A stretch of DNA of 57,564 nt from an uncultured Enterobacteriaceae bacterium (lineage in GTDB: Bacteria > Pseudomonadota > Gammaproteobacteria > Burkholderiales > SG8-39): the NCBI GenBank assembly GCA_964638135.1, contig CAZXAR010000002.1, positions 1 through 57,564 of the forward strand, given 5' to 3'. This document shows positions 4,751-11,748 of this stretch, piece by piece (position 1 is the first letter of the stretch; every line of letters begins with the position of its first letter). The position numbers and the translations under genes are program-made. The notes beneath the pieces are model-generated. The model did not search any database, was not told the DNA's origin, and saw only the letters and a list, made by a program, of their open reading frames with translations.

Positions 4751-5596
4751 ATGCGCTTCTCCGGCTCGCCCGCGTACGTTTCCACCGACGACCTCACGCT
4801 CGCGGTCAACGCGGCGATCACGCTGCAGCGCCCGTTGCTGGTGAAGGGCGAGCCGGGCACCGGCAAGACGATGCTCGCGGTCGAAGTCGCCAGGGCGCTC
4901 AAGCTGCCGCTGCTCGAGTGGCACATCAAGTCCACGACCAAGGCGCAGCAGGGGCTGTACGAGTACGACGCCGTTTCGCGGCTGCGCGATTCGCAGCTCG
5001 GCGACCCGCGGGTGCACGACATCCGCAACTACATCGTGCGCGGAATGCTGTGGCAGGCGTTCAACGCCGACACGCCGGTGGTGCTGCTGATCGACGAGAT
5101 CGACAAGGCCGACATCGAGTTCCCCAACGACCTGCTGCGCGAGCTCGACCGGATGGAGTTCTACGTCTACGAGACGCGCGAACTGGTGAACGCGCGCCAC
5201 CGGCCGATCGTGTTCATCACCTCGAACAACGAGAAGGAGCTGCCCGACGCCTTCCTGCGGCGCTGCTTCTTCCACTACATCCGGTTTCCCGACAAGGAAA
5301 CGATGGAGAAGATCGTCGGGGTGCATTTCCCGGGCCTGAAGAAATCGCTGCTGCGCGAGGCGATGGAGGTTTTCTTCGAGGTTCGCGAGGTGCCGGGGCT
5401 GAAGAAGAAACCGTCCACGTCGGAGCTCCTTGACTGGCTGAAGCTCCTGCTCGCGGAGGACATCCCGCCGGAGACGCTGCGCTCCAAGGAGCGCAAGGCG
5501 ATCATCCCGCCGCTGCACGGCGCGCTGCTCAAGAACGAACAGGACGTGCACCTCTTCGAGCGGCTGGTATTCATGAGTCGGGCCCAGCGGCAGTAG
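4751..5596 (+). CDS. MoxR-family AAA+ ATPase
   Basis: Walker A GEPGTGKT and Walker B VVLLIDEIDKA. 281 aa, with AAA_5/MoxR-like layout and a C-terminal helical lid. Confidence 0.85.
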   Translation: MRFSGSPAYVSTDDLTLAVNAAITLQRPLLVKGEPGTGKTMLAVEVARALKLPLLEWHIKSTTKAQQGLYEYDAVSRLRDSQLGDPRVHDIRNYIVRGMLWQAFNADTPVVLLIDEIDKADIEFPNDLLRELDRMEFYVYETRELVNARHRPIVFITSNNEKELPDAFLRRCFFHYIRFPDKETMEKIVGVHFPGLKKSLLREAMEVFFEVREVPGLKKKPSTSELLDWLKLLLAEDIPPETLRSKERKAIIPPLHGALLKNEQDVHLFERLVFMSRAQRQ

Positions 5597-5627
5597 CGCC
5601 GCTCGCCCGGTGGAAGGAGCGAGCAGC

Positions 5628-6554
5628 GTGACCGGGCCCCTGGAAAAGACGGTCAAGGTCGAATCGCCGGGCGGCGAACGCGAAGTCGCGGTGCTGTTTG
5701 CCGACATCGCCGGCAGCACCAAGCTCTACGAGGCGCTCGGCGACACCGAGGCGAAGGTCCTGATCGACGAGGCGCTCGTCGGAATGAACGTCATCACCAA
5801 GCGCCATCGCGGACGCGTCGTGAAGACGATCGGCGACGAACTGATGTGCGTGTTCCCGAGCGCCGAGCGCGGCTTTCTCGCCGCCACCGACATGCAGATC
5901 CTCGTCAACACGCTGCCGGTCGTGAAGGGCGTCAAGCGCATGATCCGCATCGGCTTTCATGCCGGTCCGGTGATCGAGCAGAAAGGCGACGTGTTCGGCG
6001 ACACGGTGAACGTCGCCGCGCGCATGGCGGGCCTCGCCAAGGGGATGCAGATCATGACTTCGCGCAGCACCGTGGAGGCGCTGCCGCAGGCGCTGCGCCT
6101 TGCGACCCGCGTGATCGCCGCGGTCGCGCTCAAGGGCAAGGCGAACGACATGGCGGTCTGCGAAGTGCTCTGGCAGGAAGGCGACGACCTGACGATGGCC
6201 GCCAACTCGCTTGGCGCCGAGGAGTCCGCGGCAGAGCTGGTGGTGCGGCACCGCGGCGGGGAGGTCGTTCTGGGCGTCGGCAAGGCGTCGCTGTCCTTCG
6301 GGCGCGACCCGGGCAGCGAAGTCGTGGTCTCGGGCGCGAAGGCGTCGCGCAATCACGCCCGCATCGAGAAGCGGCGCGACAAGTTCTACCTGGCCGACCA
6401 GAGTACCAACGGCACCTACGTTGTATTTGCGGGCGAGCCTGAGATCGTGCTGCGCCGCGAAGAGGTCACGCTGCGCGGAGCGGGACGCATCGGGTTCGGC
6501 CAGAGCTGCGCCGCAACCGCCGACGACTGCGTGGAATTCGCGCTCCGGCGCTGA
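5628..6554 (+). CDS. Class III adenylate/guanylate cyclase fused to a C-terminal FHA domain
   Basis: Cyclase motifs VLFADIAGST, VKTIGDELMCVF and FGDTVNVAARM. FHA motifs GRDPGSEVVV...SRNHARI...DQSTNGTYV. GTG 5628 follows GGAAGGAG (5612-5619); the in-frame GTG at 5610 is an alternative start. Confidence 0.8.
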   Translation: MTGPLEKTVKVESPGGEREVAVLFADIAGSTKLYEALGDTEAKVLIDEALVGMNVITKRHRGRVVKTIGDELMCVFPSAERGFLAATDMQILVNTLPVVKGVKRMIRIGFHAGPVIEQKGDVFGDTVNVAARMAGLAKGMQIMTSRSTVEALPQALRLATRVIAAVALKGKANDMAVCEVLWQEGDDLTMAANSLGAEESAAELVVRHRGGEVVLGVGKASLSFGRDPGSEVVVSGAKASRNHARIEKRRDKFYLADQSTNGTYVVFAGEPEIVLRREEVTLRGAGRIGFGQSCAATADDCVEFALRR

Positions 6555-6584
6555 GCGCCTGAGGCATCGGCCCGGGCGCTGCGC

Positions 6585-9723: not shown

Positions 9724-9764
9724 AAACCCTCCGTTCTGCTCGAGTGACGATCCGCCGCCGACGC

Positions 9765-10424
9765 CTATTTTCTGCGCGGCTCGGGCTGCTGACAATATTC
9801 GCTGTAGAGCCTGGCGACCACCTCTTCGGCCTGCTCGTTGATCAGGGTCAACGCCATCCCCTGCACGTCGGCGCCGCTGAACGACTGCGAATTGGCTTCG
9901 GCCTGGGCGACGCGCTTGCCGTCCGCGCCGGTGAGCGCGAAATGCATGCTGACCGCGACCTGGTTGACCGGGATCATGGGGTTGCGCATGGCGCGCGCCG
10001 AGATGAGGCCCTTCAGCGTATAGTTCGCCGCCAGCCGCTTCGCGGCCGAAAGCGCCGCGTCGGGATTGTTCTTGAAGTAGGCGTCGATCTCGGCCTGCGC
10101 GATCTGCTTGCGGATTTCCTCCTGCGTGTAGGTGCGCAGGCCGAGCTTCTGCAGCCGGGCATTGATGGCGTCGAAATGCGGGCTGAACGCCGCCTGCCGC
10201 GCCTGCACCACGCCGTTCACCTCCTCGCCGATCAGCACCATGATCTTGCGGTTCTTGATGCGGTCGAGGCAGGGCGTGGACAGCTGCGCGGCGATGCGTC
10301 GCTGGCGCTCGGCCTTGGCGGCCTCGCCCGCCTTGTCCTCGTTGGAGAACTTGAATCCCTGCGCCGCCGTGAACGCGGGCAGAGCGAGCAGCAGCAACGG
10401 AACGCAGAGTCGAAGTCGTGGCAT
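9765..10424 (-). CDS. Secreted protein of unknown function (219 aa)
   Basis: Clear Sec signal (MPRLRLCVPLLLLALPAFTAAQG). It is the first gene of the minus-strand operon with the CsgG-like gene and the kinase. I recognise no motif. Confidence 0.6.
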   Translation of the reverse strand: MPRLRLCVPLLLLALPAFTAAQGFKFSNEDKAGEAAKAERQRRIAAQLSTPCLDRIKNRKIMVLIGEEVNGVVQARQAAFSPHFDAINARLQKLGLRTYTQEEIRKQIAQAEIDAYFKNNPDAALSAAKRLAANYTLKGLISARAMRNPMIPVNQVAVSMHFALTGADGKRVAQAEANSQSFSGADVQGMALTLINEQAEEVVARLYSEYCQQPEPRRK

Positions 10425-10575
10425 GAGAGAATTTCTTGTGGGAATGCGGCAATGTACCCTTGTGCCGGTTCAGCCTTCAACCCCAGAGACGGATGAGCTC
10501 TCAGACCAGCGCCCGCAGATCCTCGAAGACGGATCAAGACAGCTTTGTAACGTACTGATCTAACGCAGACTTCTA

Positions 10576-11748
10576 ATGCTCATCGACTTCTTCCTGAAGC
10601 TGAAATCGCACAAGCTCCCGGTCTCGATCAAGGAGTACCTGACGCTGCTCGAAGCGATGGGCAAGGGCGTGATCGGGCCGTCGGTGGACGATTTCTATTA
10701 CCTCTCGCGCGCGACGCTGGTGAAGGACGAGGCGAACTACGACAAGTTCGACCGCGCGTTCGCCGAATTCTGGCAGGGCGTCGAAACCATCCCGGGAATC
10801 GAGACGCAGATCCCGCTCGAGTGGCTGCTGAAGCAGGTCGAGCTCACGCTCAGCGACGAGGAGAAGAAGCAGATCCAGGCGCTTGGCGGCTGGGAAAAGC
10901 TGATGGAGACGCTGCGAAAGAGGCTCGAAGAGCAGAAGGGCCGCCACCAGGGCGGCTCGAAATGGATCGGCACGGGCGGCACCTCGCCCTTCGGCGCCTA
11001 CGGCTACAACCCGGAGGGCATCCGCATCGGCCAGGACCGCTCGCGCAACCGCTCGGCAGTGAAGGTCTGGGACCAGCGCGAATACCAGAACCTGGACGAT
11101 TCGGTCGAACTCGGCACGCGCAACATCAAGGTGGCGCTGCGGCGCCTGCGCCGCTTTGCGCGCGAGGGTGCGCCGGACGAGTTCGACCTCGACGGCACGA
11201 TCGACGCCACCGCACGCAAAGCGTACCTCGACATCCACATGCGGCCCGAGCGCCGCAACACCGTCAAGGTGCTGATGTTCTTGGACATCGGCGGCACCAT
11301 GGACGACCACATCAAGCTCGCCGAGGAGCTGTTCTCGGCCTCGAAGACCGAGTTCAAGCACCTCGAGTTCTACTACTTCCACAACTGCCTGTACGACTTC
11401 GTGTGGAAGGACAACCGCCGGCGCCACACCGAGCGCACGCGCACCTGGGACATCCTGCACAAGTACGGGCATGACTACAAGGTGATCTTCGTCGGCGACG
11501 CGACGATGAGCCCCTACGAAATATTGCAGCCGGGGGGCAGCATCGAATACTTCAACGAGGAAGCAGGCGCGGTCTGGGTCAAGCGGGTGACCGACATCTA
11601 CGCCAAGTGCATCTGGCTCAATCCCGAGCCGGAGGAGATCTGGCCCTACCGCCAGTCGATCCAGGTGATCAAGGAGCTGATGGCGAACCGCATGTATCCG
11701 ACCACGCTCGCGGGCCTGGAGCGCGCCATGCGGGCGCTGGTGAAGTAG
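10576..11748 (+). CDS. CoxE-type VWA domain protein (MoxR partner type)
   Basis: The N-terminus MLIDFFLKLKSHKLPVSIKEYLTLLEAM is typical of the VWA_CoxE family. The strand VLMFLDIGGTMD lies at the MIDAS position. Confidence 0.8.
   Translation: MLIDFFLKLKSHKLPVSIKEYLTLLEAMGKGVIGPSVDDFYYLSRATLVKDEANYDKFDRAFAEFWQGVETIPGIETQIPLEWLLKQVELTLSDEEKKQIQALGGWEKLMETLRKRLEEQKGRHQGGSKWIGTGGTSPFGAYGYNPEGIRIGQDRSRNRSAVKVWDQREYQNLDDSVELGTRNIKVALRRLRRFAREGAPDEFDLDGTIDATARKAYLDIHMRPERRNTVKVLMFLDIGGTMDDHIKLAEELFSASKTEFKHLEFYYFHNCLYDFVWKDNRRRHTERTRTWDILHKYGHDYKVIFVGDATMSPYEILQPGGSIEYFNEEAGAVWVKRVTDIYAKCIWLNPEPEEIWPYRQSIQVIKELMANRMYPTTLAGLERAMRALVK

Follow-up and report, generated by a model that had tools for sequence, protein, structure and literature searches.

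In the threonine phosphorylation pathway of the Pseudomonas aeruginosa H1-T6SS (TagQRST, PpkA, Fha1, and PppA), accessory proteins of the periplasm and outer membrane detect disturbance of the envelope and activate PpkA, and Fha1 reads the phosphothreonine (pThr; PMC7817224, PMC3953482). Myxococcus Pkn2 joins a Hanks kinase to a class III cyclase (PMC1262709), and so does the TOMM kinase/cyclase fusion. The CsgG curli channel, PelC, FlgT, and HpaA all belong to the envelope and face the periplasm; among them, CsgG, PelC, and FlgT are ring-forming. The Synechocystis protein Cya1 is a cyclase with an FHA domain. MoxR AAA+ ATPases and VWA proteins form chaperone pairs of the CoxD/CoxE type (PMC7159879), and a precedent for a TIR-TPR complex is found in BcTir/BcTpr (bioRxiv 10.1101/2023.05.26.542521).

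This study analyzed a window of 57,564 nucleotides, the whole stretch of DNA under consideration. A MoxR-family AAA+ ATPase gene (4751-5596, plus strand; Pfam AAA 47.6 bits, AAA_5 45.6 bits) is followed after 31 nt by a gene encoding a 308-aa predicted class III adenylate cyclase with a C-terminal FHA domain (5628-6554, plus strand; Guanylate_cyc 71.1 bits, FHA 44.2 bits). Converging on the latter, at a distance of 30 nt, is the gene of a 776-aa transmembrane Hanks-type Ser/Thr kinase (6585-8915, minus strand; Pkinase 177 bits), which is separated by 22 nt from the gene of a 261-aa periplasmic protein (8938-9723, minus strand); a further 41 nt separates this gene from the first of the operon, which encodes a secreted 219-aa protein with a signal peptide (p219; 9765-10424, minus strand). 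A CoxE-like VWA gene (10576-11748, plus strand) diverges from p219 across 151 nt. The ORF check bore out the positions and spacings given for the six genes in an earlier note on this DNA, and a crude motif scan agreed with its statement that the window contains no PP2C-like gene. Its domain calls were confirmed by Pfam for the AAA, cyclase, FHA, and Pkinase domains, whereas VWA_CoxE remained below threshold (23.8 bits; cut-off, 26.4) and CsgG had no Pfam match. We consider it probable that the four genes at 5628-10424 constitute an envelope-to-cAMP module, in which the kinase acts on the FHA-cyclase, and that this module landed between a seemingly housekeeping MoxR-type AAA gene and the gene of its likely VWA partner.

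Relatives of the 261-aa protein are encoded by 427 GTDB species genomes, from which the neighborhoods of 80 listed loci were surveyed. The 80 genomes are all Burkholderiales or unclassified bins, and the protein is 66-88% identical among them; the 90%-identity cluster database holds 3626 homologues, which fall into only 250 clusters at 50% identity. Of the 80 loci, 76 carry all three of the genes for p219, the 261-aa protein, and the kinase, and a convergent cyclase-FHA gene lies beside the kinase gene in 41 of 45 evaluable loci, mostly 9-280 nt away. Both the operon and its association with the cyclase are thus conserved, which supports this part of the earlier note's reading. Other neighbors are not conserved, the next-best gene cluster being present in 17 loci of the 80-locus sample. 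Neither a PP2C phosphatase nor a cAMP receptor is linked to the module. No published description of the four genes was found in the literature; the module is conserved in Burkholderiales and undescribed.

The kinase comprises a catalytic domain (aa 12-259; 8139-8882, minus strand; PF00069), a linker, a single predicted transmembrane segment (about aa 329-353; 7857-7931, minus strand), and a periplasmic sensor domain (aa 396-776; 6588-7730, minus strand). The predicted transmembrane stretch, read straight off the translation, is LSIGVLAGAAVAIVVAAIGGTMYWM. Residues K41, D137, N142, D155, T167, and T175, including the catalytic residues and the activation-loop Thr, are invariant in 34 orthologues. 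The linker is unconserved save for a juxtamembrane D-x-T-x-[VLIM] motif, present in the window as DATRV (T287) and DATLV (T296; both within 8022-8063, minus strand). The motifs probably serve as FHA docking or phospho-acceptor sites. A D-x-T-x-[VLIM] motif is found in 37 of the 45 kinases whose gene has a cyclase-FHA beside it and in 1 of the 7 that lack this neighbor; the contrast reflects few independent evolutionary events, since the loci without a cyclase belong to related genomes, Ramlibacter being the ones named. In the AF2 model of the ectodomain (pLDDT 81.8), Foldseek recognized repeated alpha/beta domains of the CsgG/PelC/FlgT type; the top match was 8z5n_0, an LPHT flagellar ring chain (E=7e-8, 388 aligned columns), followed by HpaA, the CsgG pre-pore, and PelC.

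In the neighboring cyclase-FHA, the cyclase residues D26, D70, K66, D121, N128, and R132 and the FHA residues G225, R226, S240, H243, and N261 (of the G-R, S-x-x-H, and N-G signatures) are invariant in 43-44 of 44 orthologues. Judged by these residues, the cyclase appears catalytically intact. Its Lys/Asp pair is of the kind typical of ATP-specific enzymes, according to the class III specificity rule that distinguishes Lys/Asp from Glu/Cys (PMC1262709), and its product would be cAMP.

The leader of p219 ends in AxA|QGFKFS, and an orthologue alignment revealed two invariant cysteines, C52 and C211. The protein could be assigned to no family; its sole match in a PDB profile search, PelC 5t10 at E=0.93, is a hint and no more of a PelC-type fold. 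The 261-aa protein matched nothing in Pfam or NCBIfam even at E<=10 and nothing in the PDB by sequence. Foldseek placed its AF2 model (pLDDT 66.6) closest to CsgG 4uv3_C (E=2.6e-8, probability 1.0, TM about 0.4), the top ranks being CsgG 4uv3/6l7c, then HpaA, FlgT, PelC, and TolB-N. The label "CsgG-like" of the earlier note thus holds at the level of fold, not of sequence. Its "CsgG-like pore" did not survive, as the lipobox, the Pfam CsgG match, and the curli partner genes are all absent. The protein has a leader of the signal-peptidase-I type (AxA|Q) and lacks Cys altogether; unlike CsgG, it is therefore no lipoprotein. Its N-terminal tail (residues 22-49) is invariant yet predicted to be disordered, and a Gly-rich loop (residues 159-186) forms the tip of a long beta-hairpin in the model. 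By profile-profile comparison, the three periplasmic parts showed no homology at the sequence level; the models suggest that all the modelled parts have a common ring-forming envelope fold (CsgG, PelC, FlgT, and HpaA). The 261-aa protein and the kinase ectodomain differ from these known proteins in lacking a sequence match, a lipidation signal, and nearby curli, Pel, or flagellar genes, and here the fold is joined to a kinase or TIR receptor. One solitary paralogue adjoins an AsmA-family gene.

On the basis of these features, we propose that p219, the CsgG-fold protein, and the kinase ectodomain with its CsgG/FlgT-type fold would form a periplasmic sensing complex. An envelope cue altering this complex would switch the transmembrane kinase, which may phosphorylate Thr in its own juxtamembrane motifs or on the cyclase. 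The FHA domain would read the pThr, and the cyclase might thereby be recruited or dimerized at the membrane, changing cAMP synthesis. The invariant cyclase, FHA, and kinase residues, together with the conserved adjacency, make this link plausible; the earlier claim that pThr gates cNMP synthesis through FHA therefore stands as plausible, with a gating that could mean either activation or inhibition. The H1-T6SS pathway has a similar layout, with accessory proteins in the envelope, a Hanks kinase that crosses the membrane once and has a periplasmic domain, and a reader protein with FHA. However, the module has an adenylate cyclase as its predicted output rather than a T6SS, its accessories and ectodomain are unrelated (a CsgG/FlgT fold versus TagQRST and a vWA ectodomain), and no T6SS genes are linked to it, nor any counterpart of the pathway's phosphatase. 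The kinase-cyclase fusions are also similar, and TIGR03903 (TOMM kinase/cyclase fusion) was an NCBIfam match in the module protein search. In contrast to the fusions and Cya1, the module has its writer and reader on separate proteins, an FHA domain C-terminal to the cyclase, and a kinase with a dedicated periplasmic sensor and two secreted partners.

The same parts could instead belong to a secretion or assembly machine, in which a CsgG-fold ring in the outer membrane or periplasm handles the export or assembly of a substrate, p219 or another, and the kinase regulates or monitors that process instead of sensing an external cue. The best structural match is the membrane-bound form of CsgG, long strands pair in the model and end in a Gly-rich tip, the PelC, FlgT, and CsgG folds all make rings in export or motor machines, and the solitary paralogue has an AsmA-family gene as its neighbor. 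Nevertheless, without a lipobox or Cys the 261-aa protein would not undergo Lol-dependent outer-membrane targeting as CsgG does, the family match in Pfam is missing, and the TM-scores are low. CsgE/F/A-like or polysaccharide genes are not conserved in the 80-locus neighborhoods, and p219, which is highly conserved and has paired cysteines, does not resemble amyloid or repeat substrates. We regard such a machine as unlikely.

An independent sister variant, found in just three loci of two lineages (L086-L088), retains the ectodomain (65% identity), p219, and the CsgG-fold protein but carries TIR in place of the kinase, and its nearby cyclase carries TPR-S in place of FHA. Writer and reader thus change together while the sensor and the cyclase output stay, which argues that sensor, writer, and reader-cyclase act as one chain. 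As in Thoeris ThsB/ThsA and BcTir/BcTpr, a TIR is paired with a neighboring TPR-containing protein in this variant; by contrast, its TIR is membrane-anchored with a periplasmic sensor, and the TPR-S protein ends in a cyclase rather than an NADase. The variant, the sensor-type nature of TPR-S repeats, weak PADLOC matches (cyclase to PycC, TIR to ThsB/SAVED-TIR models), and the described TIR-TPR antiphage pair (bioRxiv 10.1101/2023.05.26.542521) are consistent with a conflict or defense system, in which an envelope-breach sensor for phage or toxin would elicit growth arrest through a nucleotide second messenger made by cyclase or TIR. This possibility appears improbable: the PADLOC matches are to generic domains and both periplasmic proteins matched nothing, no effector gene is conserved in the 80-locus neighborhoods, and neither mobile-element hallmarks nor flanking repeats were found at the module. 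Its high conservation and chromosomal location, together with the lack of mobile hallmarks, are the opposite of fast-evolving, patchy defense islands.

The kinase triad and the cyclase-FHA might also be neighbors by descent only, with the FHA domain reading a different phosphoprotein and the kinase having other substrates. The genes are convergent and hence not co-transcribed, and Ramlibacter-type loci retain the triad with no adjacent cyclase, which requires the kinase to have targets besides the cyclase or in place of it. Their adjacency across several different chromosomal sites, the covariation of the Thr motif with cyclase presence, and the parallel replacement by TIR/TPR-S make descent alone quite doubtful, and argue for the kinase-to-cyclase chain.

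The earlier note had taken the six genes as one unit with MoxR/VWA as its assembly or remodelling arm, a reading consistent with the module lying exactly between AAA and VWA in the window and in L002, L004, L006, L010, and L016 (partly in L003, L005, and L021) and with known ternary systems in which MoxR-vWA pairs recruit third components (PMC7159879), but rendered very improbable by the neighborhood survey. Among the evaluable loci, VWA was found beside the module in 7 of 60 and AAA in 3 of 40, every one of them belonging to the small clade of the window itself. The module is intact elsewhere without AAA/VWA, beside Na/Pi-cotransporter and TctA genes (L001/L050) or beside rpoN and hprK (L096). 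MoxR and VWA are bystanders marking the left and right edges of a variable insertion site, and merely flank the module because it occupies that site. AAA and VWA are 80-94% identical regardless of the intervening genes (VWA orthologues, 80-88%), and AAA, named "MoxR family ATPase" in the source, is >90% identical among the 120 clusters listed. The synteny upstream of AAA is constant whatever sits downstream, and that of the window (ATE, DHO_dh, AlaDh, Fer4/Nth, DUF1841, cytochrome c, AAA) is common to the AAA/VWA block of its relatives. With their weak VWA_CoxE match and their adjacency in other genomes, the flanks (4751-5596 and 10576-11748) resemble CoxD/CoxE-type pairs; the window's pair is nonetheless unlinked to the kinase module, is always preceded by two cytochrome c genes, and has a gap that accepts varied cargo. 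Within the same synteny block, and as in the case that the earlier note itself had said would refute its six-gene reading, this gap is filled by unrelated genes in L082, L084/85, L090, and L091-94, namely amidohydrolase and TctC, methyltransferase, and ABC/glycosyltransferase genes, whereas in L083 and L089 the two genes are directly adjacent, VWA beginning 27-54 nt after AAA.

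The positions and spacings of six open reading frames (ORFs) in the window matched exactly those assigned in the earlier note, which had read the six genes as one signalling system with the MoxR and VWA proteins as its assembly or remodelling arm. A gene encoding a MoxR-type AAA+ ATPase (4751-5596, + strand; Pfam AAA 47.6 bits, AAA_5 45.6 bits) is followed 31 nt later by the cyclase-FHA gene (5628-6554, +; Guanylate_cyc PF00211 71.1 bits, FHA PF00498 44.2 bits). Convergent with the latter, across a 30-nt gap, lies a Hanks-type Ser/Thr kinase gene (6585-8915, −; Pkinase PF00069 177 bits), which is preceded in its operon by the genes for a 261-aa CsgG-fold protein (8938-9723, −; 22 nt from the kinase) and a secreted 219-aa protein, p219 (9765-10424, −; 41 nt from the 261-aa ORF). 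The gene for a VWA protein (10576-11748, +) is divergent from p219 at a distance of 151 nt. HMM searches placed the AAA/AAA_5, Guanylate_cyc, FHA, and Pkinase assignments above the Pfam cut-offs; the VWA_CoxE match scored 23.8 bits, short of the 26.4-bit cut-off, and this weak match recurred in every orthologue examined; a PDB sequence search with the VWA protein returned no match. The 261-aa protein, p219, and the C-terminal periplasmic domain of the kinase (the ectodomain) had nothing usable in Pfam or NCBIfam, the first two not even at E<=10. No direct or inverted repeats or mobile-element signatures were found flanking the 5-kb insert between the AAA and VWA genes, nor any promoter or terminator signals, Rfam families, or tRNAs marking it. 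A crude motif scan of the window found no PP2C motif pair, in agreement with the earlier claim that the window holds no PP2C phosphatase.

With the 261-aa protein as query and each GTDB species represented by a single genome, relatives were found encoded in 427 genomes. The best 80 of these loci all belonged to Burkholderiales or unclassified bins and included Ramlibacter, Rhodoferax, Polaromonas, and Aalborgicola. In these 80 loci, tblastn with the window proteins revealed that p219, the 261-aa protein, and the kinase were jointly present in 76; in three of the four exceptions, the triad was cut by a contig end. Among the 45 loci in which the kinase C-terminus is homologous and enough sequence follows it, 41 had the convergent cyclase-FHA gene. 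Clustering of all neighbouring ORFs identified no further conserved gene, the next-commonest family occurring in 17 loci. The four genes lie between a Na/Pi cotransporter and TctA in a 6.8-Mb chromosome and adjoin rpoN and hprK in another genome. The triad is present in an isolate, Ramlibacter sp. WS9; the Rhodoferax and Polaromonas carriers are so far metagenome bins only. The homologue P0509, which appeared to be a 395-aa ectodomain protein devoid of a kinase, was rejected as such: it is a kinase with a frameshift in a long-read MAG (two overlapping ORFs, L096:6860-9188), probably an assembly error. In one Rhodoferax bin, the CsgG-fold gene occurs a second time on its own (L081:5435-6187, 73% identical), with neither p219 nor a kinase beside it; this copy is flanked by an AsmA-family gene on one side and an ornithine cyclodeaminase gene on the other.

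The four genes constitute a widely conserved Burkholderiales signalling module that is so far uncharacterised; several hundred species of the order share it, cultivable genera among them. Literature searches found no published description of this gene combination. Hanks kinases are common in Proteobacteria, and few of them have known inputs or outputs. The module offers a directly testable chain in which the kinase has periplasmic partners of its own and a conserved motif that is a candidate docking site, and in which the predicted readout, cAMP, is enzymatic.

The most likely reading, which we regard as probable, is that a periplasmic complex acts through the kinase, phosphothreonine (pThr), and the FHA domain on an adenylate cyclase and thereby changes cAMP. 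p219, the CsgG-fold protein, and the ectodomain would form the periplasmic complex that controls how active the kinase is; the FHA domain would read pThr located either on the cyclase or in the juxtamembrane motif of the kinase; and this reading would recruit or dimerise the cyclase, altering cAMP output. The catalytic and pThr-binding residues of the cytoplasmic parts are highly conserved. In the kinase, the catalytic domain spans aa 12-259 and is joined by an Ala/Pro/Thr-rich linker of poor conservation to a single hydrophobic segment (approximately aa 329-353), after which comes a well-conserved 380-aa C-terminal domain. The VAIK Lys (K41), HRD Asp (D137), catalytic Asn (N142), and DFG Asp (D155) were invariant in 34 of 34 orthologues, and the activation-loop residues T167 and T175 were also invariant. 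The cyclase has the two metal Asp, the Lys/Asp substrate pair, and the transition-state Asn and Arg of class III enzymes, and its D26, D70, K66, D121, N128, and R132 were invariant in 43-44 of 44 orthologues; the Lys/Asp pair is the mark of ATP-specific class III cyclases (PMC1262709). The pThr-binding residues of the FHA domain (G225, R226, S240, H243, N261, and G262; G-R, S-x-x-H, and N-G) were invariant or nearly so.

We then turned to the periplasmic parts. The 261-aa protein has a signal-peptidase-I type leader ending in AxA|Q and no Cys. Its AF2 model (pLDDT 66.6) matched CsgG structures best in Foldseek (4uv3, 6l7c, and 4uv2; E=2.6e-8 to 1e-6, probability 1.0), with 4uv3_C at the top (E=2.6e-8) and a TM-score of only about 0.40-0.43 across CsgG structures, followed by HpaA, FlgT, PelC, GNA1162, and TolB-N. 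The label "CsgG-like" is therefore retained at the level of the fold and falls at the level of sequence and gene context: the CsgG family model (PF03783) gave no match in Pfam/NCBIfam at E<=10, a PDB profile search with the alignment of the protein (A1) gave 0 matches, the lipobox Cys is absent, and no csgE/F/A partner genes are conserved nearby. Because no defining CsgG feature beyond the fold was found, the pore proposed in the earlier note is unsupported. In CsgG, two transmembrane beta-hairpins build an oligomeric barrel; in the monomer model of the 261-aa protein, strands 141-160/184-203 and 209-228/231-234 form long pairs whose Gly-rich tips are of low confidence, and residues 159-186 form a Gly-rich, glycine-zipper-like loop at the tip of the long beta-hairpin. 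The mature N-terminal tail (residues 22-49, QPTFGNPSPTAG...AAADVAAYK) hardly varies between genera although disorder is predicted for it, suggesting that it may serve as a docking peptide. Five distant relatives of the protein (P0254, P0255, P0259, P0326, and P0330), with identities of 31-50%, reach lengths of 400-590 aa through C-terminal extensions, in one case an FGE-sulfatase domain; the contig carrying P0326 is only 1.9 kb long and gave no useful gene context. P0259 was the sole homologue with a Pfam CsgG match, which was weak and short of the cut-off (E=0.0018).

The ectodomain model (pLDDT 81.8) matched the LPHT flagellar ring chain 8z5n_0 best (388 aligned columns), followed by HpaA, CsgG, and PelC, which places the ectodomain in the CsgG/FlgT fold group. 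p219 has a leader peptide and two invariant Cys, and its sole PDB profile match (alignment A3) was PelC at E=0.93, no more than a hint. Comparison of p219, the CsgG-fold protein, and the ectodomain through hhalign revealed no significant similarity among them, and a common origin is suggested only by their fold. CsgG/PelC/FlgT-type folds typically form rings under the outer membrane, and the matches of the 261-aa protein and the ectodomain thus indicate a periplasmic side built from a typically ring-forming fold. An export or assembly ring with the kinase as its monitor would share this architecture; we consider that explanation unlikely.

The juxtamembrane linker of the kinase has a column identity of only 0.2-0.3, yet a D-x-T-x-[VLIM] motif survives in it, either singly or twice. 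The window kinase carries DATRV and DATLV (8022-8063, −; kinase aa 285-298), and the form in Rhodoferax-type genomes is DRTEL. The strict motif was present in 37 of 45 kinases with a cyclase-FHA gene beside them, whereas it was present in 1 of 7 in loci demonstrably lacking one (Fisher p=9e-4); this value overstates the evidence because the seven cyclase-less kinases come from related genomes and represent few independent events.

A search with the ectodomain identified a sister variant of the module at three loci in relatives of the window (L086:8001-13382, L087:6024-11471, and L088). There, the module ectodomain (65% identical and nested among the kinase-linked ectodomains) belongs to a protein that lacks a kinase and begins with a TIR domain, which a TM segment connects to the ectodomain. 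The genes immediately after it are orthologous to those for p219 (57-62% identity) and the 261-aa protein (72-74% identity), and the class III cyclase nearby carries an N-terminal TPR-S domain in place of FHA. Writer and reader have thus changed in step, kinase for TIR and FHA for TPR-S, and the sensor and the cyclase output have stayed. Beside the TIR gene stand the gene for the TPR-S and class III cyclase protein and an Asp/Arg-hydroxylase gene, and the sister block as a whole lies inserted between the Nth and ferredoxin genes of the synteny region that also holds the AAA gene. A SLOG-like identity considered for the middle domain of the TPR-S cyclase was unsupported, with no PDB or Pfam match.

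Both variants may, tentatively, belong to a single envelope receptor family, in which one periplasmic sensing complex (the FlgT/CsgG-fold ectodomain and two secreted proteins) would drive cNMP synthesis through swapped, matched writer/reader pairs: a Hanks kinase is matched by an FHA-cyclase, and TIR by a TPR-S-cyclase. On this view, the logic of the TIR variant would be that of a Toll-like receptor in bacteria (an extracytoplasmic sensor, one TM segment, and a cytoplasmic TIR domain) that serves conserved chromosomal signalling rather than abortive defence, and TIR output would be functionally interchangeable with Thr phosphorylation. The TIR/TPR-S version would provide a natural experiment on how one sensor is coupled to more than one kind of cytoplasmic signalling chemistry.

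A conflict system that detects envelope breach would also accommodate a TIR domain, and PADLOC matched the kinase to PD-T4-6, the cyclase weakly to PycC (1e-8), and TIR to SAVED-TIR/ThsB. However, these are generic domain matches only, the two periplasmic proteins and the TPR-S cyclase had no PADLOC match, and the conservation of the module is strong and vertical; this explanation is also improbable. For the favoured chain, by contrast with an arrangement in which triad and cyclase are mere neighbours without a direct link, the TIR/TPR-S sister variant is the strongest argument. The adjacency of kinase and cyclase-FHA is, in addition, maintained at several chromosomal sites. Together with the linker motif, these observations make the link from kinase through pThr and FHA to the cyclase, as drawn in the earlier note, plausible from sequence comparison, and mere neighbourhood quite unlikely.

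Among known systems, the threonine phosphorylation pathway of the T6SS has the logic most alike, in which accessory envelope proteins work with the kinase PpkA and an Fha protein is the reader (PMC7817224, PMC3953482), whereas the parts and output of the module differ. The kinase ectodomain has the CsgG/FlgT fold, in contrast to the periplasmic vWA domain of PpkA. The clustering of PpkA, the PP2C enzyme PppA, Fha1, and T6SS core genes that defines that pathway was not observed; no T6SS genes were found among the module neighbours, and no neighbours beyond the four genes were conserved. Fusions of kinase and cyclase are known, for example Pkn2 and the TOMM kinase/cyclase (PMC1262709).

The flanking genes behaved differently from the module. 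Of 60 evaluable loci, 7 had the VWA gene upstream of the module; of 40, 3 had the AAA gene beyond the cyclase, and contig ends truncated it in two more. All loci with either gene belong to the handful of genomes most similar to the window; the module is thus not a consistent companion of the MoxR-VWA pair. The AAA protein, named "MoxR family ATPase" in the sources, exceeded 90% identity across the 120 clusters listed. The block ahead of it, which runs from Leu/Phe-transferase through ATE, DHO_dh, (AlaDh), ferredoxin, Nth, and DUF1841 to two cytochrome c genes, was present in 7 of 7 independent contexts and also in the window. The genes after it varied among the synteny-matched loci. VWA followed directly at L083 and L089 (27 and 54 nt), after Amidohydro_2 and TctC at L082, and after a methyltransferase at L084 and L085; L090 had Sel1 and a PAS histidine kinase, with VWA not found within 7 kb, and L091-L094 had an ABC transporter, a glycosyltransferase, a methyltransferase, and more. 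AAA and VWA are therefore a pair, and unrelated genes have repeatedly landed at the junction between them (5597-10575 in the window). At L083 and L089, a MoxR-clade AAA gene stands beside its VWA-domain partner as in CoxD/CoxE-type chaperone pairs, and the flanking AAA and VWA genes fit this MoxR-VWA kind (PMC7159879). The separation of MoxR and VWA by unrelated genes, which the earlier note had named as evidence against its proposal, is exactly what we observed: the gap holds unrelated cargo or nothing at L082-L085 and L089-L094, which refutes the MoxR/VWA arm and renders a single six-gene system highly improbable. The landing site is a caution against reading function from a "bracketing" gene order.

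Two further features of the window were observed outside these genes. The longest ORF at 2532-3527 (+) joins approximately 120 N-terminal residues, resembling a separate ferredoxin (Fer4/FeS) gene elsewhere, to endonuclease III (Nth); either the two genes are fused or the ORF caller has run overlapping genes together. A Fic/DOC-family gene (503 aa; 14688-16199, −) lies between hutF-like/amidohydrolase genes and a histidine ammonia-lyase gene in a stretch with a GC content of 0.56-0.60 against about 0.70, and has the look of foreign DNA inserted into the hut cluster.
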